Assembly: GCA_045807765.1 (NCBI GenBank)
Contig: JBJMGU010000011.1
Span: forward strand, 25,398 to 89,397
Source: Blastocatellia bacterium
GTDB lineage: Bacteria > Acidobacteriota > Blastocatellia > UBA7656
Reading direction: 5' to 3'
DNA: 64,000 nt
Positions 15,471 to 37,539 of this stretch are shown piece after piece; position 1 is the stretch's first letter; every line of letters starts with the position of its first letter. Under the pieces are notes generated by a model, which worked only from the letters and a program-made list of their open reading frames with translations, ran no database searches and was not told the DNA's origin. Both the position numbers and the translations under genes were made by a program.

Positions 15471-15505
15471 CCATAGAGTTTTTGCACAGGAGATAAAAGA
15501 GACCA

Positions 15506-17221
15506 ATGAGTTCGGAGAAATCTGGCGCCGACGCACCAGCGGTCGAATCCGGCGGCGCGTCTAACTTTGTTCGCGACATCATCATTCAAGACCTCAAGGA
15601 AGGCAAACACGACGGGCGGGTGCAGACGCGCTTTCCCCCTGAGCCGAACGGCTACCTGCACATCGGCCATGCGAAGGCCATCTATCTCGACTTTGGGCTG
15701 GCGGCGGAATTCGGCGGCAAATGCAATCTGCGTTTCGACGACACCAACCCATCGAAAGAAGAAACCGAGTACGTCGATTCGATCATGGAAGACATTCGCT
15801 GGCTGGGTTACGAGTGGGACGCGCTGTTTTATGCGTCAGACTATTTCGGTCAGCTTTACGAGTGGGCCGTCCATCTCATCAAAGCCGGGAAGGCTTACGT
15901 TGACGATCTGAGCGCCGCAGAGATTCGCCAGTATCGCGGCACGCTGACTGAGCCGGGAAGGGAAAGCCCGTACCGCAATCGCTCTGTCGAAGAGAACCTC
16001 GACTTGTTTGAGCGCATGAAGAAAGGCGAATTCCCCGACGGCTCGCGGACGCTGCGCGCCAAGATTGACATGGCGTCGCCAAACCTCAACATGCGCGACC
16101 CGGTGATGTACCGCATCCTGCACATGGAGCATCATCGCACGGGCGGCGAGTGGTGCATCTATCCGATGTACGACTATGCTCACGGCCAGTCGGATTCAAT
16201 CGAGCAGGTGACGCATTCGATCTGCACGCTCGAATTCGAAGACCACCGCCCGCTCTATAACTGGTTCATCGAACAGCTTGGGATCTTCCCGTCGCGACAG
16301 ATCGAGTTCGACCGGCTCAACATCACCTACACGCTGTTGAGCAAGCGCAAGCTGCTCAAACTGGTGCAGGATGATCACGTTACCAGTTGGGACGACCCGC
16401 GCATGCCGACGCTGTCGGGAATGCGGCGGCGCGGCTATACGCCGGAAGCGATTCGTAATTTCTGCTCCAACCTGAGCGTTTCGAAGACCAACAACATTGT
16501 GCAGTTGTCGCTGCTCGAATACTTCCTGCGCGAAGACTTAAACAAACGCGCACCGCGCGTTATGGCGGTGCTGCGCCCGCTGCGCGTCGTTATCGAAAAC
16601 TATCCCGATGATCTTGTCGAAGAGATGGAGGCGGTCAACAATCCCGAAGACCAGAGCGCCGGCACCCGCCGTGTGCCGTTCTCTAAAGTTCTCTATATCG
16701 AGCAGGACGACTTTCGCGAAGACCCGCCCAAGCAGTATTACCGGCTGGCACCGGGCCGCGAAGTGCGCCTGCGCTATGGCTACTTCATCACTTGCAAGGA
16801 AGCCGTGAAAGACGCCGAAGGCAATGTCATCGAGCTGCGCTGCACCTACGATCCACAGACGCGCGGCGGCAATGCTCCCGACGGGCGCAAGGTCAAAGCC
16901 ACCATTCACTGGGTCTCTGCCGCGCACGCCATAGATTGCGAGGCGCGGCTCTATGACAATCTCTTCATGAAAGAGAATCCCAACGAGGTTGAAGAAGGGC
17001 AGGACTTCACCGCCAACCTGAACCCGAACTCGCTTGAGGTGTTGACCGGCTGCAAGGTCGAGCCGAGCCTGCGCGACGCGAAAGCCGGCGCTGGATATCA
17101 GTTCGAGCGGTTGGGTTACTTCTCGATTGACCCCGACTCCGAGTCTAATCGGCTGGTGGTCAACCGGACGATTGGCTTGCGTGATAGCTGGGCGAAGATC
17201 GAACAACGCGGCAAGAAATAA
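15506..17221 (+). CDS. glnS: Glutamine--tRNA ligase
   Basis: [20 protein letters not shown] (HIGH), LLSKRK (KMSKS) and a GlnRS-type C-terminal anticodon-binding region. 571 aa. Confidence 0.9.
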
Positions 17222-17356
17222 AAGAGACCGCTTCCAGTTCGCACCGCTTGGAACGGTTTTCAAATTGGTGTGGCCATGTGGCGCAAGGCGGTTAGCTTGC
17301 GCCACGCCCGATTGAAATCCGCCTTAGCGCGACGAGCCGGGAGCGGTCTCTTTTAA
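17222..17356. repeat. Structured convergent intergenic spacer (long inverted repeat AAAAGAGACCGCTTCC...GGGAGCGGTCTCTTTT with inner hairpin GGCGCAAG-N8-CTTGCGCC); probable bidirectional terminator
   Basis: The inverted repeats were read directly. The spacer lies between glnS (+) and the ADOP permease (-). Confidence 0.5.
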
Positions 17357-17358
17357 TT

Positions 17359-20205
17359 TTACTCGTGGCGCAGGGCTTCTAGCGGATCGACGCGCGCCGC
17401 CTTGCGCGCCGGCAGCCAGCAGGCGACCAGCGCCACTATCGTCAGCAGCGAGGCGATGACTGCGAAGGTTATCGGGTCTGTCCCTTGCACGCCGTAAAGC
17501 TGCTCGGCCATCTGCGTCTGCCAACTGTCGTGCGCGAAATACTGGCTGGCCAGCAGGCGCTTGATGATGTAGCCGCTCACTGCGCCGACCGCCAGCCCCA
17601 GCAGCACCAGCTTCATCCCTTGCCAGATGACCAGTCGCAAGACGTTGGCCGGTTGCGCGCCGAGCGCCATGCGGATGCCGATTTCGTTGGTGCGCTGCGC
17701 CACCGAATAGGCGAGCACGCCCGACAACCCGATGGCCGCAAGCAGCAACGCCAGGCCGCTAAAGAAGCTCAAGAGCCGCGCCGACAAACGTTCTGCCCCC
17801 AACGTTGCCTGCGCGCGGGCTGTCTGCGTACTGACTTCGGTGACCGGCAGATTGCTGTCCAGCTCGCCGACGACCTGGCGCACCGCTGTCACGAGCGCGG
17901 TCGGCTCGCCCGCCGTGCGCAAGGCGAAATACATCTCGCCGATCTCGCTGCCTTCCTGCCGCCACGGCGTGTAGAGCAGCGGCGTGATCTCTTCGCGCTG
18001 GTTCGTGTATTTGGTATCGGCGACGACGCCGACGATCTCGACTTCGCGTTTACCCAGCCTGATGCGCTGGCCTAGCACGTCGGCGTTGGGAAAATACTTC
18101 TGTACGAAGCACTGATTGACAATGCCCACCTGGGGCGCGTGCTCATCATCTTGCGCCGTGAAGTCGCGCCCGCCGAGCCGCGGGATTTCCATCGTCGCGA
18201 AATAGTTCTCGCGCGCTATCTGGCGGTTGGCAGCGTGCCCCTCGGCTGTCTTTTCCATCTCGCCGGGCAGCAAAAAGCCGCTGACATGGTTTTCATCTGC
18301 GATAAGCGGGACGCGCCCAAAGGTCGCCGCGCGCACGCCCGGCAGGTTGTCCAATCGCGCAAAGAGCTGTTGATAAAACTGCGTCAACCGCTCGTCTTTG
18401 TAGCCGCCTTGCTGCGGCTGCAAGCGGAAGAGCAAGAGGTTCTCTTGATTGAAGCCCAGGTTGACGCGTTGCAAGTTGTCGAGGGTGCGAATGAACAGAC
18501 CGGCGCCGATTAATAACAACAACGAGAGCGCTACCTGCGCGACGATCAGCCCCTTGCTCAGCCGCGAGACGACGCCGGTCGTGCGGCGGCTCTGTTTGAG
18601 CGAGGAGGCGAGATCGGGGCGGGTGGCGCGCCACGCCGGCACCAGTCCAAACAGCACGCCGGTCAGTAGCGAGACCGCAACCGTGAACGCCAACACGCGC
18701 AGGTTCAGATTGAGATCAAGCTCATTGGGCAAAATCCCTGTGTCCTTGTCGGTCAGCGCCACCAGCGCGCTCTTGCCCCAGAGCGCGACTAGCACACCGA
18801 CCGCGCCGCCGACTGCCGCAAGCAGCACACTTTCGGTCAGCAGTTGCCGCACCAGACGCAAGCGCCCGGCGCCGACCGCCAGCCGGATGCTGATTTCAGG
18901 GCCGCGCAAGGCTGCCCGCGCCAGCAACAGATTGGCGACGTTGGCGCAGGCAATCAGCAACACCAGCGCCACCACGATAAACAGCCCGTAGATGGTAGTT
19001 GAATAACGTCTGCGGCGGTCCAACATCCCACGGCTGCCGGATTCCGCAATCAGGCGCGGGTAATCTTTCGGTTCGAGTTGCGCGGGCTCGTTTTCTTTGC
19101 GCGGCGGCGGCATGACTTCGAGGGCAGCGGCTTGAAAGATGCCGTCGAGGCTCGCGCGAGCCTGTTCATAGGTTGCGCCCGGTTTGAGGCGGCCCATCAA
19201 GTCCAGCCACCAGAAGCCCGGCGCTTTCGCCGTGCCCAAACGGCTGCGCTCGCCTCGCAACAACGGCTCACAGGCCAGCGGGATGGCAACGGCGGGATGA
19301 AAATCCACCTGCAACGTGCCGGTGAAAGCGGGCGGCGTGACGCCGATGATCGTGAATGCTTGCTTGTTGAGCTTGAGCGTCTGCCCAATGACGGCAGGGT
19401 TAGCGCCAAAGCGCTCCTGCCAAAACTGATGGCTTAGCACGACCACGGGCGCGGCACCTGGCTTGTCGTCTTCGCCGGTGATTGCGCGTCCCAGGCTCGG
19501 TTGCAATCTCAGCCCGGCGAAATAGCCGCCGGTCACGGCTTGCCCGTTGATGAGCTCTGCTTGATCGCCCACCGCCGCCGTCAATTGACTCAGCGGCGCG
19601 AAGGCGAAGAGGTCGCTGAGCGGGCTGTCCGGCGCTTGCGCCTGCGCCTGGCGCATCTTGTCGAAGACCTCGTAGCGAAACAGCGAAAGCCCGCGCGTGC
19701 CCGGCGGCGTCGGCACGTTCGACGTGCCGCTCATGCCATCTACCCTGAACGGCTGACCGGCCTGCCAGGCAAAGACCACCAACTGTTCCGGCTCGGCGAC
19801 CGGCAAGCTCCTGAGCAGCACAGCATCGACGACACTGAAGATAGCGGTGTTGGCGCCAATGCCTAAAGCGAGCGACAGCACGGCGACCAGGGTGAAGCCT
19901 TTGTGCTTGAGCAGCATGCGCATGCCATAGCGCAGGTCTTGAATCATGTCGTCCTCCCAGCGATAACTTTGCATCCAGAGCGCGTCCCAGAAAGCGCCGG
20001 TGCTGCGCCGCAGCAGTCCGAGTCGGGCGCGCCAGTTGAGCCGATGCCAGTCGGCCAACATCTGTTCGCGATATTGCAGCTCCGCCTGCCACTCCTGGCG
20101 CCAGTCGGCGCGCACGCGCCGAGGCACGATCAGGCCCAGGAATCGAATGAGCCAGAGCCAGAAGCGAAAACGTGGTGTGCGCGGCGGCTGCGCCATCGGT
20201 TTCAT
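17359..20205 (-). CDS. ADOP-family ABC transporter permease (MacB-like, duplicated FtsX domains, N-terminal permease-prefix domain), paralog 1
   Basis: 948 aa. Has the conserved N-terminal prefix ([21 protein letters not shown]), a MacB periplasmic core domain and two FtsX-like 4-TM modules. Its start overlaps the stop of paralog 2 (ATGA). Confidence 0.85.
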
Positions 20206-23039
20206 TCGTGGCGCAGGGCTTCGAGCGGATCAACGCGCGCCGCCTTGCGCGCCGGCAGCCAGCAAGCCACCAGCGCCACCAGCGCCAGTAGCCCCGCGAT
20301 CACCCCCAGGGTTACCGGGTCCATCCCTTTCACCCCGTAAAGCTGTTCGGCCATCTGCGCCTGCCAGGAGCTTTCCTCAAAGTACTGGCTGGCCAGCAGG
20401 CGCTTGATGATGTAGCCGCTCACTGCGCCGACCGCCAGCCCCAGCAGCACCAGCTTCATCCCTTGCCAGATGACCAGTCGCAAGACGTTGGCCGGTTGCG
20501 CGCCGAGCGCCATGCGGATGCCGATTTCGTTGGTGCGCTGCGCCACCGAATAGGCGAGCACGCCCGACAACCCGATGGCCGCAAGCAGCAACGCCAGGCC
20601 GCTAAAGAAGCTCAAGAGTCGCGCATACAACCGCTCCTGTCCGAGCGCTGCCTGCGAGCGCGCGGTTTGCGTATCGACTTGCGTAATCGGCAGCGTGTTG
20701 TCTAGCTCGCTAATGACCTGGCGCACGGTGGTCGCAAGCGCAGTCGGCTCGCCGAGGGTGCGCAGGGCGAAATTCATCTCGCCGATATTTTTCACTTCCT
20801 GTTGCCACGGCGTGTAGAGCAGCGGCTCAAGGTCGCTGCGCTGGCTATCATACTTGGCATCGGCAACGACGCCGACGATTTCGACCTGGTCTTTGCCGTC
20901 ACTGTCGCTGATGCGCTTGCCGAGCACCTCTTCATCGGGGAAGAATTTCTGCGCGAAGATTTGATTGACGATAGCGACTTTGGGGGCGCGCGCGTCATCC
21001 TGCTCGGTGAAAGCCCGCCCGCGCAGCAGTGGGATTTCCAGGGCCGCGAAATAGTTGCCGCGCACCATCTGGCGGTTGGTGATGTGTTCGCCGGCGGACT
21101 TTGCCGTTTCGCCGGGCAGCAGGAAATCAGTATTCCACATGTTGTGAGAGATGAGCGGGATGCGCCCAAAGGTCGCCGCGCGCACGCCCGGCAGGTTGTC
21201 CAATCGCGCAAAGAGCTGTTGATAAAACTGCGTCAACCGCTCGTCTTTATAACCGCCCTGCTGCGGCTGCAAAGTGAAGAGTAAGAGGTTCTCCTGATTG
21301 AACCCAAGATTGACGTGTTGCAGATTGTTGAGCGTACGAATGAACAGGCCGGCGCCGATCAGCAACAATAAAGAGAGCGCTACCTGTGCGATGACCAGCC
21401 CTTTGCTCAGCCGCGAGACGACGCCGGTCGTGCGGCGGCTCTGTTTAAGCGAGGAGGCGAGATCGGGGCGGGTGGCGCGCCACGCCGGCACCAGTCCAAA
21501 CAGCACGCCGGTCAGTAGCGAGACCGCAACCGTGAACCCCAGCACACGCAGGTTCAGACTGAGGTCAACATCTTTAGGCAGGAATTGCGTATCCGATTCG
21601 GTGATCGCCACCAGCGCGCTCTTGCCCCAGAGAGCGACTAGCACGCCGACCGCGCCGCCGACTGCCGAGAGCAGCACGCTCTCGGTCAGCAGTTGCCGCA
21701 CCAGCCGCAAGCGCCCGGCGCCGACCGCCAGCCGGATGCTGATTTCAGGGCCGCGCAAAGCTGCCCGCGCCAGCAACAGATTGGCGACGTTGGCGCAGGC
21801 AATCAGCAGCACGAGACCGACGACGATCAACAGCCCGTAGATCGTCGCCGAATAAGATTTGCGATGCTCCAGCAAACCGCGGCTGCCGGATTGCGCGACC
21901 AGATGCGGAAAATCTTTCGGGTCGAGCTGTGCCGGCTCATTGTCTCTGCGCGGCGGCGGCATGACTTCGAGGGCAGCGGCTTGAAAGATGCCGTCGAGGC
22001 TCTCGCGCGCTTGCTCGCGGGTCACACCGGGTTTGAGGCGGCCCATCAAGTTCAGCCACCAGATTTCGGGCCTGTCGGTTCTGGCCATGCCGCTACGATC
22101 ACCCAGCAGCAAGGGCTCGGCGACGACGGGGACGGTGACCGCCGGGTGATAATCAACTTGCAGCGTGCCGGCAAAGGCCGGCGGTGTCACGCCGATGATC
22201 GTGAAGGATAATTTGTTGAGCTTGAGCGTCTGCCCGATGACGGCGGTGTTGGCGCCAAAGCGCTCCTGCCAGAACTGGTGGCTCAGCACGACGACGGGCG
22301 GCGCGCCCGGCTGATTGTCTTCGTCGGTAATCACGCGCCCGGCAATCGGCTGCACGCCGAGCCCTGCGTAATAACCACCGGTCACGGCTTGCCCGTTGAC
22401 GATCTCTGCCTGTTCGTCGGTCATCGCCGTCACGCCATAGATCGGGCCGAAGGCGAAGAAATCCGTAAGCGGGCTGTCCGGCGCTTGCGCCTGGCGCAAC
22501 TTTTCAAAGATGTCGTGGCGGAATACCGAAGAATGGCGGGTGCCCGGCGGACTGGCAACGCCCGAGCCGCGCATGCCATTTGTTCTGAAGGCGCGCCCGG
22601 AATGCCATTCAAATAGCACCAGGCGGTCGGGCTCTTTGACCGGCAGGCTCCTGAGCAGCACGGCATCCATAACACTGAAGATGGCGGTGTTGGCGCCAAT
22701 GCCTAAAGCGAGCGACAGCACAGCGACCAGGGTGAAGCCTTTGTGCTTGAGCAGCATGCGCATGCCATAGCGCAGGTCTTGAAACATTTCGTCCTCCAGT
22801 CTGTAGGGTTGCAACCAGAGCGCGTCCCAGAAGGCCGCGAGACTGAGCCGCAATAAGTGCAGTTTGGTGCGCCAATCAAGGCGCTGCCAATCGGCGAGAA
22901 GCAACTCGCGGTACTGCAATTCGGCCTGCCACTCCTGGCGCCAGTCGGCGCGCAAGCGGCGCGGCACGATCAGGCCAACGAGCGCGATCAGCCGCAGATG
23001 CGGTTTCACGAAGAGGCGTTTGCAGCGAGCGAGCAAGGT
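20202..23039 (-). CDS. ADOP-family ABC transporter permease, paralog 2 (the ORF-track start at 23078 is probably too long; the GTG at 23037-23039, VTLLARCK, aligns with the paralog-3 start VSLLARCK)
   Basis: Same architecture as paralog 1, with stretches of 100% nucleotide identity to paralog 1 of more than 200 bp. Confidence 0.85.
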
Positions 23040-23082
23040 CACGCTTACGACCTCGGGCGCGAGAGAATTGTCGGGCACACTT

Positions 23083-23133
23083 CTATAGAATCCTATCTAG
23101 TCAGGATTCTACATAGGGTAGCACGAACGGTCA
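23083..23133 (-). promoter_or_regulatory. Promoter/operator for the ADOP pair: -35 TTGACC, 17-bp spacer, -10 TAGAAT overlapping palindrome TAGAATCCT-N8-AGGATTCTA (putative PadR operator)
   Basis: The 40-bp sequence is the reverse complement, with about 95% identity, of the sequence upstream of padR at 26043-26080. Confidence 0.6.
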
Positions 23134-23467
23134 AGCGACTTCTTTGGCATGGGCAGGGCTGTGGTCGGCCAGCCTTGATGCCGCGCCCCGGCGACCGGGC
23201 AGGCCCGGAGCGCGGCGGGCAACTGTCGGCTTTGCGGCCTTGACACTCGCTCGGCTTTTCGTTGAGATTCAAGTTCATGCTGTCGCCTTCTCACCCGTTC
23301 GGGTTAATCCTGGTATATCGCGCACATTCTCTATTTTATCAGGATGCGTGGTCAGATCGTTCAGTCTGCGCCCGATGAATGGCAAGCGAAACCACGACCG
23401 CAAATGGGTAATGAGCCGGGCGCGGCAATTCATGGCAAAGCCAGCCGGGTGGTGCGTTCAAAGAAAA

Positions 23468-25981
23468 ATGGATACGAAAGCCCCAAACCTGATTCCCAGC
23501 GGCATTGAGCCGGTTGATAAGTTACTGGGCGGCCTCGAAAGCGGCCAGTTGTATCTGGTTCACGGCGAGGGCGCGGGCAAGTCCCTATTCGGCATCAAGT
23601 TCCTCATTGAAGGTCTCAAGCGCGGCGAGCACGGCGCGCTGGTCATCCGCTATTCGCCCGAAGACGCCGTGCGCCGCTTCGCCCGCCTCGGCTACGATTG
23701 CCTCGAAGACGTTTACAGCGGGCGACTGGTCATCCTCGAATACTCGGACGACATCATTCAGCAGGTTTCGCGGCTGCGCGAGATGACGCCGGTGCTGCGT
23801 GAGCTGGAATGGCTGCTCGGCGAAACCAAGCCGCAACGATTGATCTTCGACCCGGTCACCAGCCTGATTGCCGGCGTCGGCAATCTGCAATCACGCGCCG
23901 GCGAGTTCACCGCCTGGTCGCGCTCATTCGGCGCAACGGTCGTCTACATCGCCAATGGTGACGCCGATGTGGTCGAAGCCGTCAAGCCGCAGACGGCGGA
24001 AGTTGTGCGCTTCGAAGTTAAAGACATCGGCGAGCGAGCCGCGCGCTTTATCAATTTTGAGAAGGCGGGCATCGCCGACCAGCCGATTGAAGTAGACCCG
24101 TCGCGCGGCATCTTTTTGCTCGACCGCGGGCGCGGCCCCGATCATTTCTTCTCGATCTTCCAGGCGACGCCGCCGGCAACCAGCGCGGCAACGCCTGAGC
24201 AAAAGCCAGCCGCGCCAATCGCGCCGCCGGTTTCAGAGATCACCGCGCCGCCTGTTGAAACCAGCGCGCCGGAGCCGGTCGTTGAATCTCCGGCGCTCGG
24301 CAAGCTAAGCGATTTCGATCTCGATAAGTTGCTTGAGCCCTTCGCTGAGATGGCTAGAACCGCTACGCACGCGACGATGGAGGCGACTAAGGAGACGACA
24401 GAGAGCGCGCCGCCAACCGAGCCAACGCCACGCGCCGCTGATGCACCGTCTGAGTCACAAACGACCACGCCGCAAGCCGACGCGCCGCAAGCCGCAGACA
24501 TCCAGACTCTACCGCAAGTGGCAGACACGACACCGCTGCCGCCGGCTGTGCCGCCTGTCGCCGTCGCGACGCCTGTGCAAGCCGTGAGCGATGCGCCAGC
24601 CGATCTCTTCGCCGATTTGATTGACGAATTATCCAAGTCCGAGTCACCGCTCGACATCGAAGTACCTGAAGCGGCGGCGACTCAGTCTGCCGGCCAGCCC
24701 CCAGCCCCCACGCTGCCGGCGGGCAAAGACCCGCGCGCAACCGGCGAGCTGACTTATCCGCCGGCGGCCTTCTCTGCCGACGAGCCGGCGACTGCCGACG
24801 AAGCAGCGTCTGCCGAAGCCTCAGCGCCTGCGACAGACGAAACGTCTGCAAGCGCCCCCGACGAAGCACCGCCGATGCCACATCGCCGCGCTGCCGACCT
24901 CAAGCTCGATTCGGCTCTGGCCGCGCACGCCACCGAAGCGCTATTGCGCCCACCCGACGCGCCGAGCGAGCCGCCTGCCGAAGCGATTGCCATCGAGCCG
25001 GTCGCGGAAGCCGCCGAGCCGGTCGCGGTTCAGCCAAAAGATTGCAAGGTGCTGGTCATCGATGATGACCTGGCCTCGTGTGCTCAGGTCGCGCAGACGC
25101 TCGACAGCTACACGCTCGATATCGTTCACGACGGCATGAGCGGGCTGGCCAAGCTGATCTCTTATAAGCCCGATCTCGTCGTCTTGAGCCTCGACCTGCC
25201 GATCATTGATGGCTTCAAGGTGCTGGAGCATATTCGCCAGGGCTTGAACGTGCCGGTTATTCTGACCACGGCGACGCGGATGCGCGCCGGTGACCGCGTG
25301 CTGGCGGCGGAACTGGGCGCAGACTACTACCTGGCGAAGCCTTACAGCCAGAACGAGCTGCGCCACAAAGCGCGGCAGTTGATCGCGCGCTATCGCGGCA
25401 TCAGCTCGTGGATCGCGGGCGCAGCGGCGACCGGCAAGACAGCGGAGCCGGCCACAGAGCCACAGCCCGAGCCGATGGGCGCTCCCGCCGCTGTTGATCA
25501 CTTCACTTCTTATCAGCAATTCACCGCGCAGGTCGAAGAGCGTGTGCGCGCGACACTGGAAAACAACGCCACCTTTGCCATCGTCGGCTGCCGGGTTCCG
25601 CAGATGACCGCCAAAGGCGGGCACGTTGCCTTGCGGTTGTATGATCTGGTGCGCCGGCTGGTGCGCGAGAACGATCTGCTATCAACCAACCCGCGCAATG
25701 ACATTGTGATCTTACTGACCGACGCCAACGCCAACGGCGCGCGGGCCTTCATCAACCGCCTGCGTGAGCGCGTCGTCAACGACCTGCACCAGGAGCCGGG
25801 CATCTGGCTGCGCAGCTTCCCTGACCTTGAAGAAGCGGCGGGCGCCAAAGACTGGACCTACCATTCGGGCAACGGCGGCAGCGCCAGCCGCCGCGCCAGC
25901 GACCGTTCCGCGGCCTCTGATGCTGCGCACACCGAAGACCACACAGAAGCGCCGCACCGTGATTTCTCCGAGACGCTGTGA
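23468..25981 (+). CDS. Multidomain signalling protein: KaiC/RecA-superfamily ATPase domain, about 300-aa Pro/Ala/Thr/Glu-rich disordered linker, CheY-like receiver, degenerate (inactive) GGDEF domain
   Basis: Walker A GEGAGKS and Walker B LVILE in a KaiC/RadA-like fold (IPSGIEPVDKLLGGLESGQLYLVHG). The REC domain has KVLVIDDD...DLVVLSLDLP...KPY. The C-terminal region matches GGDEF topology but has NPRNDIV in place of GGDEF. The start is uncertain: alternative ATGs at 23375 and 23411, and the ORF-track ORF begins at 23144. Confidence 0.65.
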   Translation: MDTKAPNLIPSGIEPVDKLLGGLESGQLYLVHGEGAGKSLFGIKFLIEGLKRGEHGALVIRYSPEDAVRRFARLGYDCLEDVYSGRLVILEYSDDIIQQVSRLREMTPVLRELEWLLGETKPQRLIFDPVTSLIAGVGNLQSRAGEFTAWSRSFGATVVYIANGDADVVEAVKPQTAEVVRFEVKDIGERAARFINFEKAGIADQPIEVDPSRGIFLLDRGRGPDHFFSIFQATPPATSAATPEQKPAAPIAPPVSEITAPPVETSAPEPVVESPALGKLSDFDLDKLLEPFAEMARTATHATMEATKETTESAPPTEPTPRAADAPSESQTTTPQADAPQAADIQTLPQVADTTPLPPAVPPVAVATPVQAVSDAPADLFADLIDELSKSESPLDIEVPEAAATQSAGQPPAPTLPAGKDPRATGELTYPPAAFSADEPATADEAASAEASAPATDETSASAPDEAPPMPHRRAADLKLDSALAAHATEALLRPPDAPSEPPAEAIAIEPVAEAAEPVAVQPKDCKVLVIDDDLASCAQVAQTLDSYTLDIVHDGMSGLAKLISYKPDLVVLSLDLPIIDGFKVLEHIRQGLNVPVILTTATRMRAGDRVLAAELGADYYLAKPYSQNELRHKARQLIARYRGISSWIAGAAATGKTAEPATEPQPEPMGAPAAVDHFTSYQQFTAQVEERVRATLENNATFAIVGCRVPQMTAKGGHVALRLYDLVRRLVRENDLLSTNPRNDIVILLTDANANGARAFINRLRERVVNDLHQEPGIWLRSFPDLEEAAGAKDWTYHSGNGGSASRRASDRSAASDAAHTEDHTEAPHRDFSETL

Positions 25982-26030
25982 ACTGAACCCGCCCGCACCG
26001 CGAAATCTTAGCGGCTGCCTTGACCCGCCA

Positions 26031-26080
26031 AGCTACCCTATGTAGAATCCTGACTAGATAGAATTCTATCTGCGAAATCT
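26031..26080 (+). promoter_or_regulatory. padR promoter/operator: -35 TTGACC (26031-36), -10 TAGAAT (26054-59), palindrome TAGAATCCT-N8-AGAATTCTA
   Basis: The hexamers and 17-bp spacing were read directly. The palindrome overlaps the -10 and the transcription start region, which is the classic arrangement for an autorepressor. Confidence 0.6.
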
Positions 26081-26094
26081 CTAAGGAGCAGGCA

Positions 26095-26421
26095 ATGGGC
26101 AAAGGCTTCCTCACTCATGCGACCGCGATTATCTTGCAAGCGGTCGCCAACGATTATCTCTACGGCTTCGACATCATTGACATCACAGGGCTGCCCGGCG
26201 GCACCGTCTACCCGGCGCTGCGCCGCCTGGAAGAGGCTGGCTATCTCGCCTCCAAATGGGAGAAGCCGGCGCTCGCGCAGCAGCAACAGCGCCCGCCGCG
26301 TAAGTACTACGAGCTGACCCGCGAAGGCCGTGAGGCGCTCGCCGAAGCCGTCAAACGTTTTCGCCTGCTCGAGCTGGCGCAGCCCCGGCGTGCCCGCCAA
26401 CCGCGCCCCTCGCGTGCCTGA
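26095..26421 (+). CDS. padR: PadR-family transcriptional regulator
   Basis: 108 aa winged-HTH protein (YGFDIIDITGLPGGTVYPALRRLEEAGYL...RKYYELTREG). Found immediately upstream of an ADOP permease, as is usual in Acidobacteria. Confidence 0.85.
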   Translation: MGKGFLTHATAIILQAVANDYLYGFDIIDITGLPGGTVYPALRRLEEAGYLASKWEKPALAQQQQRPPRKYYELTREGREALAEAVKRFRLLELAQPRRARQPRPSRA

Positions 26422-26432
26422 GGTCGTTCGCC

Positions 26433-29189
26433 GTGTCGTTGCTCGCCCGCTGCAAACATTTTTTCGATAAGCCGCACCTGCGCTTGATCGCGCTCGTCGG
26501 CCTGATCGTGCCGCGCCGCTTGCGCGCCGACTGGCGCCAGGAGTGGCAGGCCGAATTGCAGTACCGCGAACTGCTTCTCGCCGATTGGCAGCGGCTGGAT
26601 TGGCAGATGCGGTTCGGTTTATTGAGGCGGAGCCTGGGCGCGTTCTGGGACGCGCTCTGGATGCAAAGTTATCGCTGGGAGGATGACATGATTCAAGACC
26701 TGCGTTACGGCATACGAATATTGTTGAAGCAACCCGCCTTCACGCTGATCGCCGTGCTGTCGCTCGCCTTAGGCATCGGCGCCAACACCGCCATCTTCAG
26801 CCTGCTCGATGCCGTGCTGCTTAAATCGCTGCCGGTGCAAGAGCCGGACAAGCTGGTGCTATTCGGCAAAGGCGAGAGCGCCGGCTTAACCAACGGCTTC
26901 CCGAATCAGAGCAGCGATCTCTTTTCTTATCCCTTTTATCAAGAAGTGCGGCAGCGCAACGAAGTCTTTTCCGATGTGGTGGCGCTCTTGAGCATGACTT
27001 GGAACGTGCATGGCACAATCAGCGGCGACGGGGCAGGTGACATGCAGCCGATTCAGGTTCAACCGGTCTCGGGCACCTACTTCTCGACGCTCGGAGTCAA
27101 CGCCGGCCTCGGTCGCGTGTTTACGGAAGCCGACGATCTGATGCCCGGCGGCCATCCGGTTGCCGTCGTCAGCTACGCCTGGTGGCAGAGCCGCATGGGC
27201 GGCGACCCGGCAGCGCTCGGCAAGCTCATCACAATAGAGCAGACGGCTTACACCATCGTCGGGATTGCGCCGCGAGAGTTTTTCGGCACGTCCGTCGGGG
27301 TAGCTCCCGACATCTATGTGCCGCTGGCGATGCAAGCCGAATTGCCGCCGGCGCACTGGAACGGGCGTGACGACAAACTCTTCCAATCGCTCTACCTCAT
27401 CGGGCGGCTCAAAAACGATGTCAGCGCCGAGCAGGCCAACGCTGCCGTCAATCTGCTCTTCAAACAGTCCTTGCAAGAGCAGGCCGGGCTACAGCCTGCC
27501 GCCGACCGATTGCAGGACATCGAGCGGGCGAGCATCGAATTGACGCCGGCGGGCAAAGGCGTCTCGGAACTGCGGCGCGAGTTCTCGTTGTCGCTACGCA
27601 TCCTGATGGCGGTCGTCGGCGTCGTGCTGCTGATCGCCTGCGCCAACATCGCCAACCTGTTGCTGGCGCGCGCCGCCAACCGCAAGAAAGAGTTCGCCGT
27701 GCGCATGGCGATGGGCGCCGGGCGCATACGGTTGATTCGCCAGTTGCTCACCGAAAGCATCCTGCTGGCGAGCGTCGGCGGCCTGGCCGGCGTGATGCTG
27801 GCATGGTGGGGCAGCCGTTTGCTGATCGGCATGGCGTCTTCGAGCGCCGAGCCTTTGCCGCTCGACGTGACGCCGAATCTGCGCATCCTCGGCTTCACGT
27901 TGCTGGCGTCTTTGCTCTCGGCGGTGATCTTCGGGACAGCCCCGGCGTTGCGCGCTGCGCGCATCGAGCCGAACGCCGCGCTCAAAAGCGGCAGAGGCAC
28001 AGTACAGGCTGGGTCGCAGAGCCCGCTTGGCAAGGCGCTCGTAGTCGGGCAAGTGGCGCTTTCGCTTTTGCTGCTGGTCGGCGCGGGCCTCTTCGTGCGC
28101 ACGCTGATTAATTTGCAGAACGTGCCGACGGGATTCAATCAACAGAACGCCATGGTCTTTGAGATTGACACGGCGGCGACCGGTTACAAAGACGAGCAGT
28201 TTCCTGCTTTGCTGCGCGAGGTCGAAGAGAAAGTCAAAACGGTGCCGGGCGTTCAGGCCGACGGCTTTTCATTCTTGCTTTTCAATCAAGGCGGCTGGAC
28301 GAGCCTGGTGACGACCCGCGACCAGACGGCGACCGACATTGAGCGCCCCATCGTCAGGCAGAATGTGGTCGGCCCGGACTATTTCGCCGCAATGGGAATC
28401 CCGCTGCTGCTCGGTCGCGGCTTTGGCCCGCAAGACACCGAAAAATCGCAGAAGGTCGCCGTCATCAGCGAAACGATGGCGCAGCGCTTCTTCCCTGAGG
28501 GCTCGCCGCTCGGCAGACGTTTCGGCGTCAAGGGCCCGCAATCTCGCGACGACATCGAAGTCATCGGCGTCGTCAAAGACTCCAAGTACATCAGCCTGAC
28601 CGAGCAGGCGCAACCGCTGGCTTTCTACCCGTATTCGCAGCACGCCCAGCCGCTCGGCAACTTCGTCGTGCGCTATACGGGCGCGCCCGAAGCGGTCATC
28701 GCGCAGGTGCGGCAAGCGATACGTGAGGTCAATCGCAATCTGCCGATTAATGAAGTCGTCAGCCTTTCGGATCACATTGGGCGCTCGCTGGTTCAGCAAA
28801 AGCTGGTGGCGCGGCTCGCCGCCTTTTTTGGTCTGCTCGCCCTGCTGCTCGCCTGTATCGGGCTGTACGGCGTTCTGTCGTATGCGGTGGCGCGGCGCAC
28901 CAACGAGATCGGCATTCGTATGGCGCTCGGGGCGCAGAGTCGTGACGTGCTATGGCTGATGCTGCGCGAAGCGCTGACGCTCGTCATCATCGGCGTCGTC
29001 ATTGGTCTGGTGGCTTCACTGGCGGCAACGCAGACGGCTTCGAGCCTGCTCTTTAACCTGAAGCCAAACGACCCGCTGACGATTATCCTGGCGACGTTGC
29101 TGTTGCTGACCATCGCTATACTGGCGGGTTACCTGCCGGCTCGCCGGGCCGCCCGCCTCGACCCGATGGTAGCGCTGCGCGAGGAATAG
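26433..29189 (+). CDS. ADOP-family ABC transporter permease, paralog 3 (GTG start)
   Basis: 918 aa with the permease-prefix motif ([32 protein letters not shown]), a MacB periplasmic domain and two FtsX modules. Confidence 0.85.
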   Translation: MSLLARCKHFFDKPHLRLIALVGLIVPRRLRADWRQEWQAELQYRELLLADWQRLDWQMRFGLLRRSLGAFWDALWMQSYRWEDDMIQDLRYGIRILLKQPAFTLIAVLSLALGIGANTAIFSLLDAVLLKSLPVQEPDKLVLFGKGESAGLTNGFPNQSSDLFSYPFYQEVRQRNEVFSDVVALLSMTWNVHGTISGDGAGDMQPIQVQPVSGTYFSTLGVNAGLGRVFTEADDLMPGGHPVAVVSYAWWQSRMGGDPAALGKLITIEQTAYTIVGIAPREFFGTSVGVAPDIYVPLAMQAELPPAHWNGRDDKLFQSLYLIGRLKNDVSAEQANAAVNLLFKQSLQEQAGLQPAADRLQDIERASIELTPAGKGVSELRREFSLSLRILMAVVGVVLLIACANIANLLLARAANRKKEFAVRMAMGAGRIRLIRQLLTESILLASVGGLAGVMLAWWGSRLLIGMASSSAEPLPLDVTPNLRILGFTLLASLLSAVIFGTAPALRAARIEPNAALKSGRGTVQAGSQSPLGKALVVGQVALSLLLLVGAGLFVRTLINLQNVPTGFNQQNAMVFEIDTAATGYKDEQFPALLREVEEKVKTVPGVQADGFSFLLFNQGGWTSLVTTRDQTATDIERPIVRQNVVGPDYFAAMGIPLLLGRGFGPQDTEKSQKVAVISETMAQRFFPEGSPLGRRFGVKGPQSRDDIEVIGVVKDSKYISLTEQAQPLAFYPYSQHAQPLGNFVVRYTGAPEAVIAQVRQAIREVNRNLPINEVVSLSDHIGRSLVQQKLVARLAAFFGLLALLLACIGLYGVLSYAVARRTNEIGIRMALGAQSRDVLWLMLREALTLVIIGVVIGLVASLAATQTASSLLFNLKPNDPLTIILATLLLLTIAILAGYLPARRAARLDPMVALREE

Positions 29190-29197
29190 GTAAATCA

Positions 29198-29432
29198 GTA
29201 GCAGTAGGCAGTAGGCAGGCGATTTCTAAGCTCCGTTAGGAGCGTAATGTTTATAGTCGTCGCGGCGCTTAAACAATCAAGCTCCGTAGGAGCGGAATGT
29301 CAACATCGCGCTCCTACGGAGCTTGATCTTTATTGGAATGTCTTGACTATAAACATGGCGTCCCTACGGGACTAGGTAACTGCCTACTGCCTACTGCCTA
29401 CTGCGTACTGCCTGCTGCCTACTGCCTACTAC
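29198..29432. repeat. Hairpin element, family B, copy B2 with nested inner palindromes (gctccgtaggagcg motif three times)
   Basis: Outer arms are gtagcagtaggcagtaggcag (29198-29218) and ctgcctactgcctactgcctactgcgtactgcctgctgcctactgcctactacc (29380-29432). There is an inner perfect palindrome gatcaagctccgtaggagcg...cgctcctacggagcttgatc. The right arm overlaps the stop of the convergent gene at 29429. Confidence 0.8.
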
Positions 29433-31165
29433 CTCGTCACATTGCCGCAATCCATTTCGGTGCCGTTGTCGGTGCTGCTCCAGTGCAGGCGATTCCAGCC
29501 GCCATTGTTCTGCTCGGAGAAAGTCATTCCATAAAAGTAACAGGTGCCGTCGTTGCGTTTGACGGCGACCGCGCCGTTGATGGCGCGGCGCGTGATGATG
29601 CCGCTGATCGGATGACGGTAGAGCGTCCACTCGCGCTCGGTGATGACGGCGCGCACAGGTACGCCGGGCTTGCCCTGGTCGGTCAACATGCCGCGCGTCG
29701 CCTCGACCATGGCGCGCTCAAGAACCGGGTCGCTCTTGACCGCCCTGGGCAAAAAGACATTCTTCAATGCGATCTTGTGATAAGCGATGGCGCGCTCAGC
29801 CATCTTCTCTTGGCCGTTCGAGCAATCAATCTCGAACTCGCCTTCGGCAAGGTCGTGGCGGGAACTCATATAGATGGCGCTGACGCGGAAGCCGAGCGTG
29901 TGGCTGCGCGGTGAGCATTCGGCGAGCAGCCTGGCGTAACGTGACGAGCCTTCGCATTCTTTCGCCGTCTCAAGTGCCGGCAGCACCTCAATCGGCATGA
30001 ACGTCCACTGCTCCATTGGCTTAGTCATTGGATAATTGAAGCTGGTCATCTCGTTGCCGTCGAGGAAGACGGTCATCTGCATTTCGGTATCACCGGAATG
30101 CGCGCCGTCGGCCATCTCGGCAATCGTCCCTTTGAAGTAGGCCGTCGCATAAACTGTATCGGCGAGCGAAAACGTTTTGGCGACTGCCGACACCTCTTCC
30201 TGGCCGGCGACCAGCGGCTTGCGGCTGTAGACGACCTTCCCGGTGTTCTGCTTGTGGAATGCGCCGGCGTAGACTTTGCTGCCGAGATCGCGCTCGACCG
30301 CGCCGACAATAGCTTCGGCATCCTTGCGAATCCTGAGCGCCTGCGATTGATCGGGGAACGACAACAGCACGCCGTTGGCAAGCATCAGGGCGATGTCTGC
30401 GGCCTCGGTCGCTGCGCCGACTGCGCCGGCACCCTTCTTCTTTTCAACGTAGGCTTTCTCGATGGTGGCGTTGATCTCGCCGATCAAAAAGCTACGCACG
30501 AACTCGTCGTACTCTTTCGGGAATTTCGTCAGCAGTTGCTCGACGTGGTCGCTGATCTCGTTGTCGGTGCGCAGGCCGGGATGTTTGGCGAGCGCGTCCT
30601 TGACCTTCTTGATGGTCTCGCCATAGCCCAGCTCTTTGCACGATTCAAAATAGCGCTCGGCGTCGCCCTTCGTCTGTGTGTAGATGCCTTTCCAATAGGT
30701 CTGCGGAATCAGGTGCTCTGACGCGTAGGCCATTTTGCTGATGAAGGCTTTGATCTCGTCGAGCGAGTCGTCGTCGGCCTTGCGATCATTGGTCCGGCTG
30801 TCATTCGCCTTGCGGTCATTGACTGCGCTGTCATTCTCGTCTTCGCTCAACAACCGGCTGTAACCGGCGATCTCATGCTCATATGCCGCGGTCGAATAAT
30901 CGCGGTAGAGACTTTTGATGCCACCGATCAGCTCTTTGGCGTACTTCGCCGCGGCGCGTGCGCCTTCGATGTCGGGCGGATTCTCTTTTAGCTCTTTCCG
31001 CAGATCACTCATAGCCTGTTCGAGGCGGCGCACTTCGATGCGGCTGTCGGTTGAAATGCTTGGCTTGCGCTTTGGCACCGATACTTCGATCTTGATCTGT
31101 GTGGCGGCGAGCGGCTCTAAGGCGAACAGCACCGTCAGCGTCCAGATAGCAAATAAGCGTGTCAT
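29429..31165 (-). CDS. Hypothetical secreted protein (Lys/Glu-rich, lower GC than neighbours)
   Basis: The ORF spans 29429..31180. The probable start is MTRLFAIWTLTVLFALEPLAA, a signal peptide. I recognise no domain. Codon usage is AT-richer than the surrounding genes. Confidence 0.55.
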   Translation of the reverse strand: MTRLFAIWTLTVLFALEPLAATQIKIEVSVPKRKPSISTDSRIEVRRLEQAMSDLRKELKENPPDIEGARAAAKYAKELIGGIKSLYRDYSTAAYEHEIAGYSRLLSEDENDSAVNDRKANDSRTNDRKADDDSLDEIKAFISKMAYASEHLIPQTYWKGIYTQTKGDAERYFESCKELGYGETIKKVKDALAKHPGLRTDNEISDHVEQLLTKFPKEYDEFVRSFLIGEINATIEKAYVEKKKGAGAVGAATEAADIALMLANGVLLSFPDQSQALRIRKDAEAIVGAVERDLGSKVYAGAFHKQNTGKVVYSRKPLVAGQEEVSAVAKTFSLADTVYATAYFKGTIAEMADGAHSGDTEMQMTVFLDGNEMTSFNYPMTKPMEQWTFMPIEVLPALETAKECEGSSRYARLLAECSPRSHTLGFRVSAIYMSSRHDLAEGEFEIDCSNGQEKMAERAIAYHKIALKNVFLPRAVKSDPVLERAMVEATRGMLTDQGKPGVPVRAVITEREWTLYRHPISGIITRRAINGAVAVKRNDGTCYFYGMTFSEQNNGGWNRLHWSSTDNGTEMDCGNVTR

Positions 31166-31349
31166 TATCGTTTCCTCCAAAAAGTCGTTTTATCCATCCG
31201 TTTGATTGCGCCCCGAGGCGCAACGCGTTTTAACTGCACGCCGGTTGAAGGTGGCGCTCGCGGCGCGGTATTACTGGCGGGCAAAAAAAGTTTGGCAGTT
31301 GGGCGCGGCGCTAAGGCGGCGAAACGCTGTGCGCGCTTCAGGCGAATGG

Positions 31350-31379
31350 TTGACAATGGCAGAAGCGGCGCGGTCAAAT
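31350..31379 (+). promoter_or_regulatory. Putative promoter of the sigma gene (-35 TTGACA, 18-bp spacer, -10 TCAAAT)
   Basis: The hexamers were read directly. The call is weak. Confidence 0.3.
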
Positions 31380-31419
31380 CAGCTTCAGCGTTTTATCAGT
31401 GAGCGCATTGTGAGGGGCT

Positions 31420-32469
31420 GTGGCGATCCGAGAGCTTGACGACATTCTTCTGCCGCTGGTCGAAGCCGGCGACACGGATGAGGCCGACACGCGGCTGGCG
31501 GCGGTATTGGCCGAGCATGCCGCGCCGGTCATTCGCGGCGTCGTCAAGAGCAAGCTGCGCGTGTCGCTAAGCCCCGCAGATGGCAGCGCCGCCAATCAAG
31601 ATGCGCTTGAGCTTGCAAACGACGTGCAGGCCGCGCTCGTCACCGAGTTGCGGCGATTGCGGAGCGCCGAGTCGCGGGAGCCGATCAGCGACTTTCGCGG
31701 TTATGTCGCGGTGCTCGCCTTCCACGCCTGCTACCGCTACCTGCGCCGCCGCAACCCCGAGCGCCACTCGCTGAAAAGTAAGATACGTTATATCCTTTCG
31801 CACGCCCCTGAGTTCGCACTGTGGCAGGATGCAAACGGCGCATGGCTGTGCGACAGCGCGGCGCGGCGCCGTTCGCCAACTCAGGCGGCGCGCGCAAAGC
31901 CGAGCGACGAAGCGTTGTCGGCGCGCCTGTTGTCGCGGCTGACCGATCCGGCCAGCACAGGACTCACTGACCTGCTCGCCGCCATCGTCGAAGAAGCGGC
32001 GGGCGCGATGGAGCTTGACGAGGTGGTCAGCTTGGTGGCCGCCTTGCAGGGCATTCGCCCTATAGCGGAACAGGGCGAAGGCGACGCAGAGGGCGAAGAC
32101 CGGCAGCGCCAGGAGCTAGCTGACCCGCGCGCAGACGTGGCCGCGGAAGTTGACCATCGCCTCTACCTTGAGCAACTGTGGCGGGAGATTGGCGATCTGC
32201 CGCCGCGCCAGCGCCTCGCCCTGTTGTTGAACCTGCGCGACGCGCAGGGGCGCGACGTGATCGCCTTATTGCCCATCACCGGCGTCGCCAGCCTGCGGCA
32301 GATCGCCGACGTGCTCGGCATACCCGCCGAAGAATTTGCCGCGCTGTGGAACGACTTGCCGATGGATGATGCGCGCATTGCCGAACGACTGGGCATCACG
32401 CGACAGCAGGTCATCAATCTGCGCAAGTCGGCACGTGAACGATTGATGCGGCGGATGAAATATCATTGA
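31420..32469 (+). CDS. ECF-like sigma-70 family factor with extended linker (GTG start)
   Basis: Region-2-like N-terminus and a C-terminal region 4 HTH (DLPPRQRLALLLNL...SLRQIADVLGIPAEEFAALWNDLP...RQQVINLRKSARERL). 349 aa. Confidence 0.6.
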   Translation: MAIRELDDILLPLVEAGDTDEADTRLAAVLAEHAAPVIRGVVKSKLRVSLSPADGSAANQDALELANDVQAALVTELRRLRSAESREPISDFRGYVAVLAFHACYRYLRRRNPERHSLKSKIRYILSHAPEFALWQDANGAWLCDSAARRRSPTQAARAKPSDEALSARLLSRLTDPASTGLTDLLAAIVEEAAGAMELDEVVSLVAALQGIRPIAEQGEGDAEGEDRQRQELADPRADVAAEVDHRLYLEQLWREIGDLPPRQRLALLLNLRDAQGRDVIALLPITGVASLRQIADVLGIPAEEFAALWNDLPMDDARIAERLGITRQQVINLRKSARERLMRRMKYH

Positions 32470-32529
32470 AGCCGCAGGCCGCGCGGTAATATGCGAAGCG
32501 CGGCGCGCCCTTAACCAGATGGGGAACTG

Positions 32530-33903: not shown

Positions 33904-33917
33904 GTTCTGTTACCTGC

Positions 33918-36900: not shown

Positions 36901-37007
36901 GAGATGATTCTTCGATGAGACACAGTAGCCCCCCGGTCATGCGCTTGCGAATCGGTCGCCGCGCAAGACTCACTTCTAAATGATTGGTTGGGATGGAGCG
37001 CCAACAT
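33918..37007 (-). CDS. TPR-repeat plus CHAT (caspase-like peptidase) domain protein with N-terminal NTF2/SnoaL-like domain
   Basis: Multiple TPR units (LNNVGYLYWNQGDFQQALALWQQSL and others). The C-terminal CHAT region has a His/Cys dyad context (VLHLATHG ... VVLSACETA). 1029 aa. A possible signal peptide follows an internal GTG (VSHRRIISAIIILALVGALPVQA). Confidence 0.8.
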   Translation of the reverse strand: MLALHPNQSFRSESCAATDSQAHDRGATVSHRRIISAIIILALVGALPVQAARAPSRLVMQEAADEAGLRDLVQRYFAAFARKEIDAVAALWSAQSPDYVAIRHAIGGLFEDARSITVNHLNVMRVTFGADGARVRVAADLTVIDAESGKEIAPFHRMQRSMRFVKEAGEWRLWSDSPAERDLAAALVKMKSSAERVALLKQEENLITLRLPYEIKLVGNQYQEAGDYATAMDAYQLALALCEQLKDDLGVANTLNNVGYLYWNQGDFQQALALWQQSLAMYEAIGGPTAAAGRAQQMNNIASIYLEQGRHAEALELYEKSMKFAESVKNVRSQATALMNMGDVMLRQQNYEQALAAYRKSLALVEPLGEPRLVADLRGNIANVLMVQGQVDAALKQFEANLSLYESLNFKDGVAGTLKNIGNCYRLQNAPAAALASYEKSLAVAEGMKNKVAMAGALLDIAEAHLAASRPEPALTAAGRAAQLARETESPDTLWRAEKYMADAYRALNQTTSARQSLDEAIRAIESLRARVAGGEQEQQRFFEDKLDPYHDMIELLLRDNRTGEALAYAERAKARVLLDVLRGGRANITKAMTREERERESSLAGSLALLNAQVARESASSKPNAARLADLKSRLQQARVEYEAFQITLYASHPELKTQRGQSPALSADQAGALLVDSHSALLEYVVTSAKTFLFVITRKADGTSDVRSYTLNIKETELTARAEQFRHQLASRDLEFRGPARELYNLLLGPAQEQLAGKDALVIIPDGALWNLPFQALMTKEAYLIERQAVAYAPSLTALSEMRRQHKRRAQTSAPTLLAIGNPAFSGHAGQATTLGGPLAALPETEAQVKTLSQIYGVANSRVYTGREASEARVKAEAAKYRVLHLATHGILDNDSPMYSRLVLAQDENNSKEDGLLEAWEIMNLDLPAEMVVLSACETARGRVGAGEGVIGLTWSVFVAGSPTTVVSQWKVDAASTNDLMVEFHRRAMNGEGKAQALRQAMLKVLRGERWKHPFYWAGFVVVGDPQ

Positions 37008-37246
37008 TCTAGCACGCCGGCGCTCTGCCGTGAACCGCTGAGCGCCCGCCTTTCATCAGTCGAAACGGACAAAAATCTTTTCTCGGCGGCGCCGGTAATA
37101 TCGCCTCGCCGCGCGCCCCTTACCTGATTGTGACGAGGTCAGCGCGGCGGCAGTGCAAACGGTTCACTAGGGATGGAGCGCCGTTTCACGCCTGCCGCGC
37201 CCTCTTTTTCCGCAGCGACGCTGTTCACCCAAGGAGAGTGTGACGC

Positions 37247-37423: not shown

Positions 37424-37424
37424 A

Positions 37425-37493: not shown

Positions 37494-37539
37494 TCGCGAT
37501 ATCTGCCCCTATAGCGGTTTGCAAATGCATGGAGCCTTA

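Follow-up and report, generated by a model that had tools for sequence, protein, structure and literature searches.

Two inverted copies of a predicted PadR operator-promoter and the apparent loss of padR from one of two ADOP permease units in a Blastocatellia bacterium

Can a single PadR-type regulator serve two separate permease units, and how does one of them come to carry the operator without the regulator gene? The question is raised by a 64,000-nucleotide stretch from the metagenome-assembled genome of an uncultured soil Blastocatellia bacterium (assembly GCA_045807765.1, contig JBJMGU010000011.1, positions 25,398 to 89,397; hereafter the window), which contains three genes for ADOP permeases. 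One unit is formed by padR, the only gene of its kind within the 64-kb window, and ADOP3; the other, on the opposite strand, by the tandem genes ADOP2 and ADOP1, without any regulator gene. A gene for a KaiC-like ATPase with a receiver domain (KaiC-REC) lies in between, and the same promoter-like sequence precedes both units. Acidobacteria are abundant in soil, and ADOP permeases are among their most expanded protein families; no description of their function or regulation was found in the searchable literature.

The pattern TTGACC-N17-TAGAATCCT-N8-AGRATTCTA is found at 26020-26068 on the forward strand, upstream of padR, and at 23134-23086 on the reverse strand, upstream of ADOP2. No other match was present in the window at up to 3 mismatches, against a chance expectation of 0.01, and none of 100 shuffled controls produced two or more. 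An initial annotation of this DNA had described the motif and its inverted copy upstream of ADOP2-ADOP1. The latter is indeed there, as a perfect repeat, whereas the copy next to padR, reported at 26031-26080, was placed with its start about 11 nt too far to the right, and its right arm is AGAATTCTA, not AGGATTCTA, a mismatch in one arm. At both copies the 9-nt arms overlap the -10 hexamer, as had also been noticed, and the dyad (as a search pattern, TAGAATNCT-N8-AGNATTCTA) thus sits on the promoter of the regulator itself. The two promoters, P_A before padR and P_B before ADOP2, score best among the sigma-70-like sites of the interval 17000-29600, each with 10 of 12 matching positions; they are inverted relative to each other and 2.9 kb apart.

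The shared block is longer than first described, with 37/38 identical positions in GCTACCCTATGTAGAATCCTGACTAGATAGRATTCTAT. When the two upstream regions were aligned, four collinear segments appeared, namely this 38-nt core, a gap corresponding to padR, the 43-nt leader of ADOP2 and 171 nt of coding sequence (89% identity); an inverted-repeat search returned pairs of 173 nt at 90% and of 51 nt at 88%. A Rfam scan of 22950-26500 at E ≤ 1 gave no match, i.e. no known RNA element in either leader, and neither a relic of a third promoter copy nor a breakpoint scar was found near the AMP-ligase gene, in 37008-37650.

The element was then sought by an exact scan for TAGAATCCT-N8-AGRATTCTA in about 185,000 species-representative genomes, a set that does not include the source genome. 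Among the 47 loci obtained, six belong to Acidobacteriota, and in five of these six the next gene downstream of the element is a padR ortholog, with an ADOP gene after it. About 20 further orthologous loci contain the form TTGAC(C)-N17-(C)CCTATG-TAGAATnCT-N8-AGnATTCTA, located 25-60 nt upstream of the padR start. Every examined orthologous locus (PadR identity of at least about 73%) contains the element exactly once, and nowhere else in the locus; the search for further copies, which had been recommended, gave none in the rest of the window, and in Acidobacteriota found five of six at padR orthologs. Positions left free in the search pattern are also conserved, with TA at positions 13-14 in 24/24 sites and a spacer that is mostly CTAGAT. 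Position 7 of the half-site tracks a PadR residue: regulators reading NGY-L-YGFD occur with C/T, while R, Q or I at this residue occurs with A/G or with divergent repeats. This co-variation is suggestive, the loci sharing their phylogeny and not being independent. On these sequence comparisons, the element appears to be a conserved promoter/operator tied to padR.

P_B, with the same downstream junction, was also identified in the relatives L057/L060, L058, L059, L088 and L090 (L numbers designate orthologous loci). In the alignment of the ADOP2-KaiC intergenic region of five genomes it forms a sharply conserved island within flanks that cannot be aligned, and the sequence upstream of its -35 hexamer is unalignable in the two more distant genomes of the five. 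The right half-site AGGATTCTA and the spacer CTAGAT, both downstream of the -10 hexamer, are invariant in all five P_B copies. The padR-less copy therefore seems to be maintained, and would not be a decaying relic.

The tandem pair had been proposed to have lost its own padR, on the basis of a 40-bp segment before the ADOP2 start resembling the 3' end of padR plus the spacer. The ADOP2 leader does align collinearly to the last 35 nt or so of padR, the stop codon and the 11-nt spacer found between the end of padR and the start of ADOP3, with a best ungapped core of 16/19; the padR stop TGA is changed to CGA, and the ribosome-binding site GAGG survives, 8 nt away from the GTG start. Over its first 40 nt (tagaag…ggtcgta) the leader does not vary among four genomes of the window's clade. 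L088 and L090 have a padR-less leader with the same junction, in which the padR stop TGA is kept 11 nt before the ADOP start. How far the similarity exceeds background depends on the comparison: with random 43-mers of the genome, allowed any position within the 364-nt target, the value is 3.6% (97/2686), with the collinear 3' end of padR about 0.1-0.2% (4/5000, 8/5000). For the collinear alignment, the shuffles reaching the observed similarity were 8/5000 for the window, 11/5000 for L088 and 1/5000 for L090 (p about 0.0002-0.002). The remnant alone may thus be rated as moderately significant; it appears convincing when joined to the comparative data.

These come from relatives with an older gene order. 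In L048, L049, L050-52 and L062, whose PadR proteins are 81-87% identical to that of the window, the order is AMP-ligase -> padR -> ADOP -> <- GlnRS <- KaiC-REC <- GluRS, with KaiC-REC between the two tRNA synthetase genes. The comparison of synteny that had been suggested shows padR between the promoter and the ADOP1/2 ortholog in L048, L049, L050 and L062; the padR-adjacent ADOP of these four loci is 74-80% identical in amino acids to ADOP1/2 and 44-45% to ADOP3, and ADOP2 reaches 80% with the ADOPs of L048 and L050. Synteny and orthology together indicate that the ADOP2-ADOP1 site beside GlnRS is the ancestral padR site. The proposal that the tandem pair once had a padR, since lost, is therefore supported by these alignments, relatives carrying padR directly upstream of the ADOP1/2 ortholog. 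The shared junction (…AGGATTCTATAGAA|nGTGCCC…) points to one event in a common ancestor, the deletion of about 320 bp, and some 35 nt of padR may have been spared because they carry the GAGG of the permease, which overlaps the padR stop.

The derived clade includes the window, L053-L059 (PadR 91-100% identical), L088 and L090, and its order is <-ADOP (1/2 type) P_B | KaiC-REC-> | P_A padR-> ADOP…. In L090 there is only one ADOP on the left, and the AMP-ligase gene comes directly after the ADOP3-type gene. L088 shares the four extra genes of the window, and an additional 885-aa ADOP of a third type is found between padR and an ADOP3 ortholog with an 'internal-type' N-terminus. L089 shows the older order, with an ADOP3-type body in the gene after padR in place of the ADOP1/2 type.

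The gene now following padR in the window is a composite. ADOP2 and ADOP3 share 48% of their amino acids, with third codon positions near saturation (0.47), whereas their first 57 codons or so (171 nt) are 89% identical, 0.79 at third positions. Codons 1-57 of ADOP3 (26433-26603) are of the ADOP2 or 'first-gene' type, and the body is that of a distant paralog: compared with the padR-adjacent ADOPs of L048, L049 and L050, these codons are 80-84% identical, the same as for ADOP2, and the body only 53-54%. ADOP N-termini can be split, within the first 20 residues or so, into two types, the 'first-gene' type, which begins with V[ST] and always follows padR, and an 'internal' one. Across Blastocatellia, PadR orthologs head arrays of 1-5 varied ADOP paralogs whose bodies are mutually 37-51% identical (L004, L063, L069, L073, L074, L088, L089); at least three types of body, 37-45% identical, are found on the same head. 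Varied bodies behind a constant padR and N-terminal head suggest that the permease body has been exchanged between lineages, padR and the 'first-gene' N-terminus staying together while the bodies change. The surviving padR would thus belong to an inverted duplicate of old date, placed today at the head of the distant paralog ADOP3, possibly through deletion of an intervening first gene such as that present in L088. A recent graft of the head onto ADOP3 was considered and dropped, the matrix of N-terminal identities and the L088 and L090 loci indicating an older duplication followed by conversion from B to A.

Conversion is also suggested by the identity between the A and B copies of the 171-nt head within each genome, which is 0.89 in the window, 0.91 in L057, 0.96 in L058, 0.85 in L090 and 0.77 in L088. 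When the A copy of the window is compared with L088 and L090, identity is higher to their B copies (0.82 and 0.85, respectively) than to the A ones (0.78 and 0.81). From these figures the duplication appears to be old, with later exchange between the arms, running from B to A, in the window's clade, and the 89% identity over the first 57 codons would reflect this later gene conversion.

ADOP1 and ADOP2 are themselves 78% identical in amino acids (genes about 81%), with patches of 100% nucleotide identity. One fully identical patch of about 150 nt (ADOP1 ~17505-17655, ADOP2 ~20350-20500) suggests gene conversion between the tandem genes. The N-terminus of ADOP1 (19920-20205) is a mosaic as well, its first 25 residues or so being of the 'internal' type and residues ~58-95 identical to ADOP3, not to ADOP2; its body is of the ADOP2 type.

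The inverted arms around KaiC-REC measure about 0.2-0.6 kb. In the assemblies of L057, L058 and L059, contigs end symmetrically inside both arms (320/231, 169/168 and 84/84 nt, respectively); this is the assembly collapse expected at an inverted repeat. The head (promoter-operator, padR and about 57 ADOP codons) might be regarded as a portable signalling cassette, with the N-terminal coding region as a recombination hinge and with recombination between the arms inverting the 2.9-kb KaiC-REC segment and swapping, in a shufflon-like manner, the operon that carries padR, by which the permeases under PadR control could be diversified or switched; we hold this to be unlikely.

The account of the locus that we consider probable is the following. 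A PadR dimer would most likely bind the 26-bp dyad TAGAATYCT-N8-AGRATTCTA, which, at a strong promoter of sigma-70 type, covers both the -10 hexamer and the transcription start, and would thereby occlude the -10/start region at both P_A and P_B. P_A would drive padR-ADOP3 under autoregulation, and P_B would drive ADOP2-ADOP1, which has no regulator gene, under repression in trans. By analogy with known PadR systems, we infer that PadR is the dyad-binding protein and that both promoters respond to it. The history of duplication, deletion and conversion is largely shown. It would start from an ancestral P-padR-ADOP unit beside GlnRS, the head of which, about 0.6 kb long (P, padR and some 57 codons), would have been duplicated in inverted orientation in the common ancestor of the window genome, L088 and L090. 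About 320 bp of padR would then have been deleted from the original copy, while the duplicate with the intact padR came to head the distant paralog ADOP3; the left-hand ADOP would later have been duplicated in tandem, gene conversion keeping the two arms alike. The conserved, helical domain at the N-terminus of the ADOP permease may pass the inducing signal on to PadR, which we infer by analogy with what is proposed for HAAS-PadR pairs. The TIGR03434 model begins at residue ~87, after the conserved N-terminal region, which is thus fused to the FtsX/MacB-PCD part.

Several observations weigh against this account. The canonical PadR/LmrR operator box is ATGT-N8-ACAT, and the dyad does not match it: ATGT is present directly before the left half-site, without an ACAT 8 nt downstream. 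The core of the half-site, AGAATTCT, is itself palindromic, and several orthologs have 3-4 half-sites with a 16-bp period; the array may be taken for a dyad or, with equal justification, for 16-bp direct repeats, which makes the binding geometry uncertain. The operator cores of P_A and P_B agree at 36/39 positions versus 0.80 at four-fold sites (P = 0.03), and gene conversion could explain this conservation too; the test of selection within the genome being marginal and confounded by conversion, reliance is placed on the footprints seen across genomes. Starting from the older order (GluRS, KaiC-REC, GlnRS, <-ADOP, <-padR), a single inversion, a tandem duplication with deletions and a tandem-inversion duplication were each tried as a route to the derived order, and each needs extra steps. 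Finally, the N-terminal 95 aa or so of ADOP, taken as an isolated domain, gave no Pfam or NCBIfam match at E ≤ 10, and no PDB sequence match was obtained with a 23-sequence profile; the AlphaFold2 model is all-helical and of low confidence (pLDDT 62, pTM 0.28). On these results the HAAS link is a putative one.

The identity of the two copies could also be due only to recent conversion of the ADOP 5' regions, P_B never having had a padR and the remnant being the product of chance and of a shared ribosome-binding site. The arms have indeed undergone conversion, the ribosome-binding region GAGGTCGT accounts for part of the remnant similarity, and the remnant, taken alone against genomic 43-mers, stays at the 3.6% level. 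Yet a conversion tract copied from P_A would have brought padR along, relatives with the older order have padR exactly between P and the ADOP1/2 ortholog, and in L088 and L090 the stop codon of padR and the spacer are still present in the leader, at the same junction. Judged on these alignments, the explanation seems largely refuted, and we regard it as very improbable. That a padR was present and lost remains the preferred reading, and the other alternatives concern the role of the operator.

The palindrome might be the site of another regulator, either a PadR paralog or the KaiC-like/receiver protein, with PadR merely co-located. Acidobacteria do encode many PadR paralogs, as also stated in the TIGR03433 description, and the motif is unlike known PadR boxes. 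However, it follows padR orthologs into many neighbourhoods while occurring nowhere else in those loci, and its variants co-vary with the PadR sequence; as to KaiC-REC, the gene is not adjacent to the motif in relatives with the older order, and no DNA-binding domain was detected in the protein by a Pfam scan. Such a regulator has, in our estimate, little probability. A similarly small chance is given to P_B being active as a promoter with a vestigial operator, in which case ADOP2-ADOP1 would be constitutive or otherwise controlled and the three permeases would not be co-regulated. Conservation of P_B could indeed result from promoter function (-35 and -10) plus conversion from P_A, and in L088 the left half-site is changed to TAGCATTCT; but the right half-site and CTAGAT, which a promoter does not need, do not vary among the five copies of P_B, and of the two palindromes that of P_B is the more perfect. 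Binding of PadR at both sites continues to be the interpretation favoured here.

The coordinates of the features are collected in Table 1.

Table 1. Features of the window discussed in the text. Positions are those of the 64-kb stretch.
Feature	Position	Strand	Remarks
GluRS	13986-15473	+	
GlnRS	15506-17218	+	
ADOP1, 948 aa	17359-20205	-	tandem duplicate of ADOP2; TIGR03434 896.7 bits
ADOP2, 946 aa	20202-23042	-	TIGR03434 907.1 bits; GTG start at 23042 assigned by homology
Left arm of inverted repeat	22871-23135	-	P_B, padR remnant, ADOP2 codons 1-57
ADOP2 leader (probable padR 3' end remnant and padR-ADOP spacer)	23043-23085	-	43 nt; from alignments
Operator B (predicted)	23086-23111	-	TAGAATCCT-GACTAGAT-AGGATTCTA; perfect 9-nt arms
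Promoter P_B (predicted)	23106-23134	-	-35 TTGACC 23134-23129, 17-nt spacer, -10 TAGAAT 23111-23106
KaiC-like ATPase and receiver-domain gene (KaiC-REC)	23468-25981	+	Pfam PF06745, PF00072; context, outside the PadR unit
Right arm of inverted repeat	26019-26604	+	P_A, intact padR, ADOP3 codons 1-57
Promoter P_A (predicted)	26020-26048	+	-35 TTGACC 26020-26025, 17-nt spacer, -10 TAGAAT 26043-26048
Operator A (predicted)	26043-26068	+	TAGAATCCT-GACTAGAT-AGAATTCTA; overlaps -10 hexamer and predicted transcription start
padR ribosome-binding site AAGGAG	26084-26089	+	
padR, 108 aa, short PadR-family winged-helix regulator	26095-26421	+	Pfam PF03551
ADOP3, 918 aa, duplicated FtsX/MacB-PCD permease	26433-29189	+	TIGR03434 935.6 bits
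Four more genes after ADOP3	29429-37007		
AMP-ligase, RsmE, PrmA, Era, CorC, YbeY, 7TMR-HD protein	37651-45907	-	

PadR matches Pfam PF03551 over residues 20-84 with 51.6 bits (cutoff 27), while its score of 43.9 bits with TIGR03433 (padR_acidobact) remains below the cutoff of 101.8, i.e. the protein is related to that paralog model and falls outside it. The best solved relatives are 3l7w, 4ejo and 5h20, short PadR structures matching at E values from 1e-6 to 1e-4. Orthologs form over 120 clusters, at 75-99% identity and nearly all of exactly 108 aa; by sequence, PadR is a member of a separate, tightly conserved Blastocatellia ortholog group. All three permeases exceed, over their full length, the TIGR03434 (ADOP) cutoff of 622.3 bits, and Pfam finds two MacB_PCD and two FtsX stretches in each. 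ADOP2 and ADOP1 are arranged as an operon: the start of ADOP1 and the stop of ADOP2 overlap as ATGA (20202-20205), from which co-transcription and, probably, translational coupling may be expected. The open frame of ADOP2 extends upstream of 23042 to 23078, and an in-frame GTG at 23076-23078, whose equivalent in L090 was taken by the gene caller, would add 12 residues of padR remnant; the start at 23042 is preferred because L088 has an in-frame TGA there and because of the conserved GAGG before the GTG at 23042.

The KaiC-REC protein is composed of a KaiC/RecA-like ATPase (residues 9-195), a low-complexity linker of about 300 residues, rich in Pro and Ala, and a receiver (528-635), followed by some 190 C-terminal residues without Pfam match. 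A second conserved island is found in the ADOP2/KaiC-REC intergenic region, at 23236-23345. It includes an imperfect hairpin, ATCCTGGTA…TATCAGGAT, and a block shared without change by five genomes, and has no Rfam match; the segment 23301-23346 matches the region upstream of KaiC-REC in L048 (87% over 46 nt), which suggests that the island is the promoter or leader of KaiC-REC itself, moved along with the gene. Between GlnRS and ADOP1, which are convergent, a pair of 33-nt inverted repeats (17216-17248 / 17326-17358) is probably a bidirectional terminator. Just behind the ADOP3 stop, at 29197-29430, comes a composite palindrome that resembles a MITE- or REP-like element. Two nested inverted repeats (29232-29258/29345-29371 and 29276-29300/29303-29327) are enclosed on one side by (AGTAGGC)n heptamers at 29197-29218 and on the other by inverted (ACTGCCT)n heptamers at 29379-29430; L049 and L089 have similar heptamers upstream of their padR promoters.

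For the tightly conserved PadR group, the conserved and precisely placed predicted operator offers an experimental handle, and the padR-less second unit provides a natural test case for regulation in trans. Co-inheritance of padR with the permease N-terminus would speak indirectly, on genomic grounds, for the proposed HAAS-PadR signalling pair. The locus also presents a case of regulon growth with intermediates in relatives, in which a promoter-operator is duplicated, a redundant regulator is lost and conversion keeps the copies alike. All this should be useful to specialists; it amounts to ordinary operon splitting under a known type of regulator and does not overturn current understanding.

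The closest known arrangement within the phylum is that of the TIGR03433/TIGR03434 pairs, in which a padR likewise adjoins ADOP duplicated permeases in an acidobacterium; the PadR described here scores below the TIGR03433 cutoff and belongs to a separate ortholog group. No described operator was found in the searchable literature for either group, and the operator motif, the history of padR loss and the variable ADOP arrays appear undescribed there. In Listeria monocytogenes, LltR, LstR and LadR are PadR-like autorepressors of membrane-protein operons (PMC6624303). There, too, a multi-spanning membrane protein (DUF1700-containing or FtsW/RodA-like) is the product of the first gene downstream, but phylum and effector proteins differ, each regulator controls a single operon, and the regulons were determined experimentally.

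A HAAS-PadR-like wHTH dyad was proposed by Ravi et al. (mSystems 2024) as a system in which an N-terminal helical HAAS domain holds or releases the adjacent PadR (PMC11237479); its architectures include fusions to FtsX-like transmembrane and MacB-PCD regions, with an Acidobacterium example (PMC11237479). The likeness lies in a standalone padR directly upstream of an FtsX/MacB-PCD partner gene, as in all orthologous loci, and in the head travelling here as padR plus the first 57 codons or so. Unlike HAAS partners, the N-terminal 95 aa or so of ADOP match no DUF1700, DUF1129 or DUF1048 model, and the GxP kink was not confirmed; two of the three permeases, moreover, are in a unit without padR, and the dyad is itself a computational proposal.

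LmrR of Lactococcus lactis, finally, binds both its own promoter and that of lmrCD (PMC4534193). As would be the case here, where repression is predicted, a short PadR-type dimer represses its own and a second transporter promoter through palindromic promoter sites. The target of LmrR, however, is a complete ABC exporter, and drugs binding at the dimer interface release the regulator, whereas the targets considered here are ADOP permeases without ATPase; the LmrR box is of the ATGT-N8-ACAT type, in place of TAGAATYCT-N8-AGRATTCTA; and the second operator of the window would derive from duplication of the promoter-padR head followed by padR deletion. The type of system is thus known, a PadR autorepressor with a promoter-overlapping operator, membrane-transporter genes and a second promoter controlled in trans, and it is as a member of this type that the present locus is predicted from its sequence.

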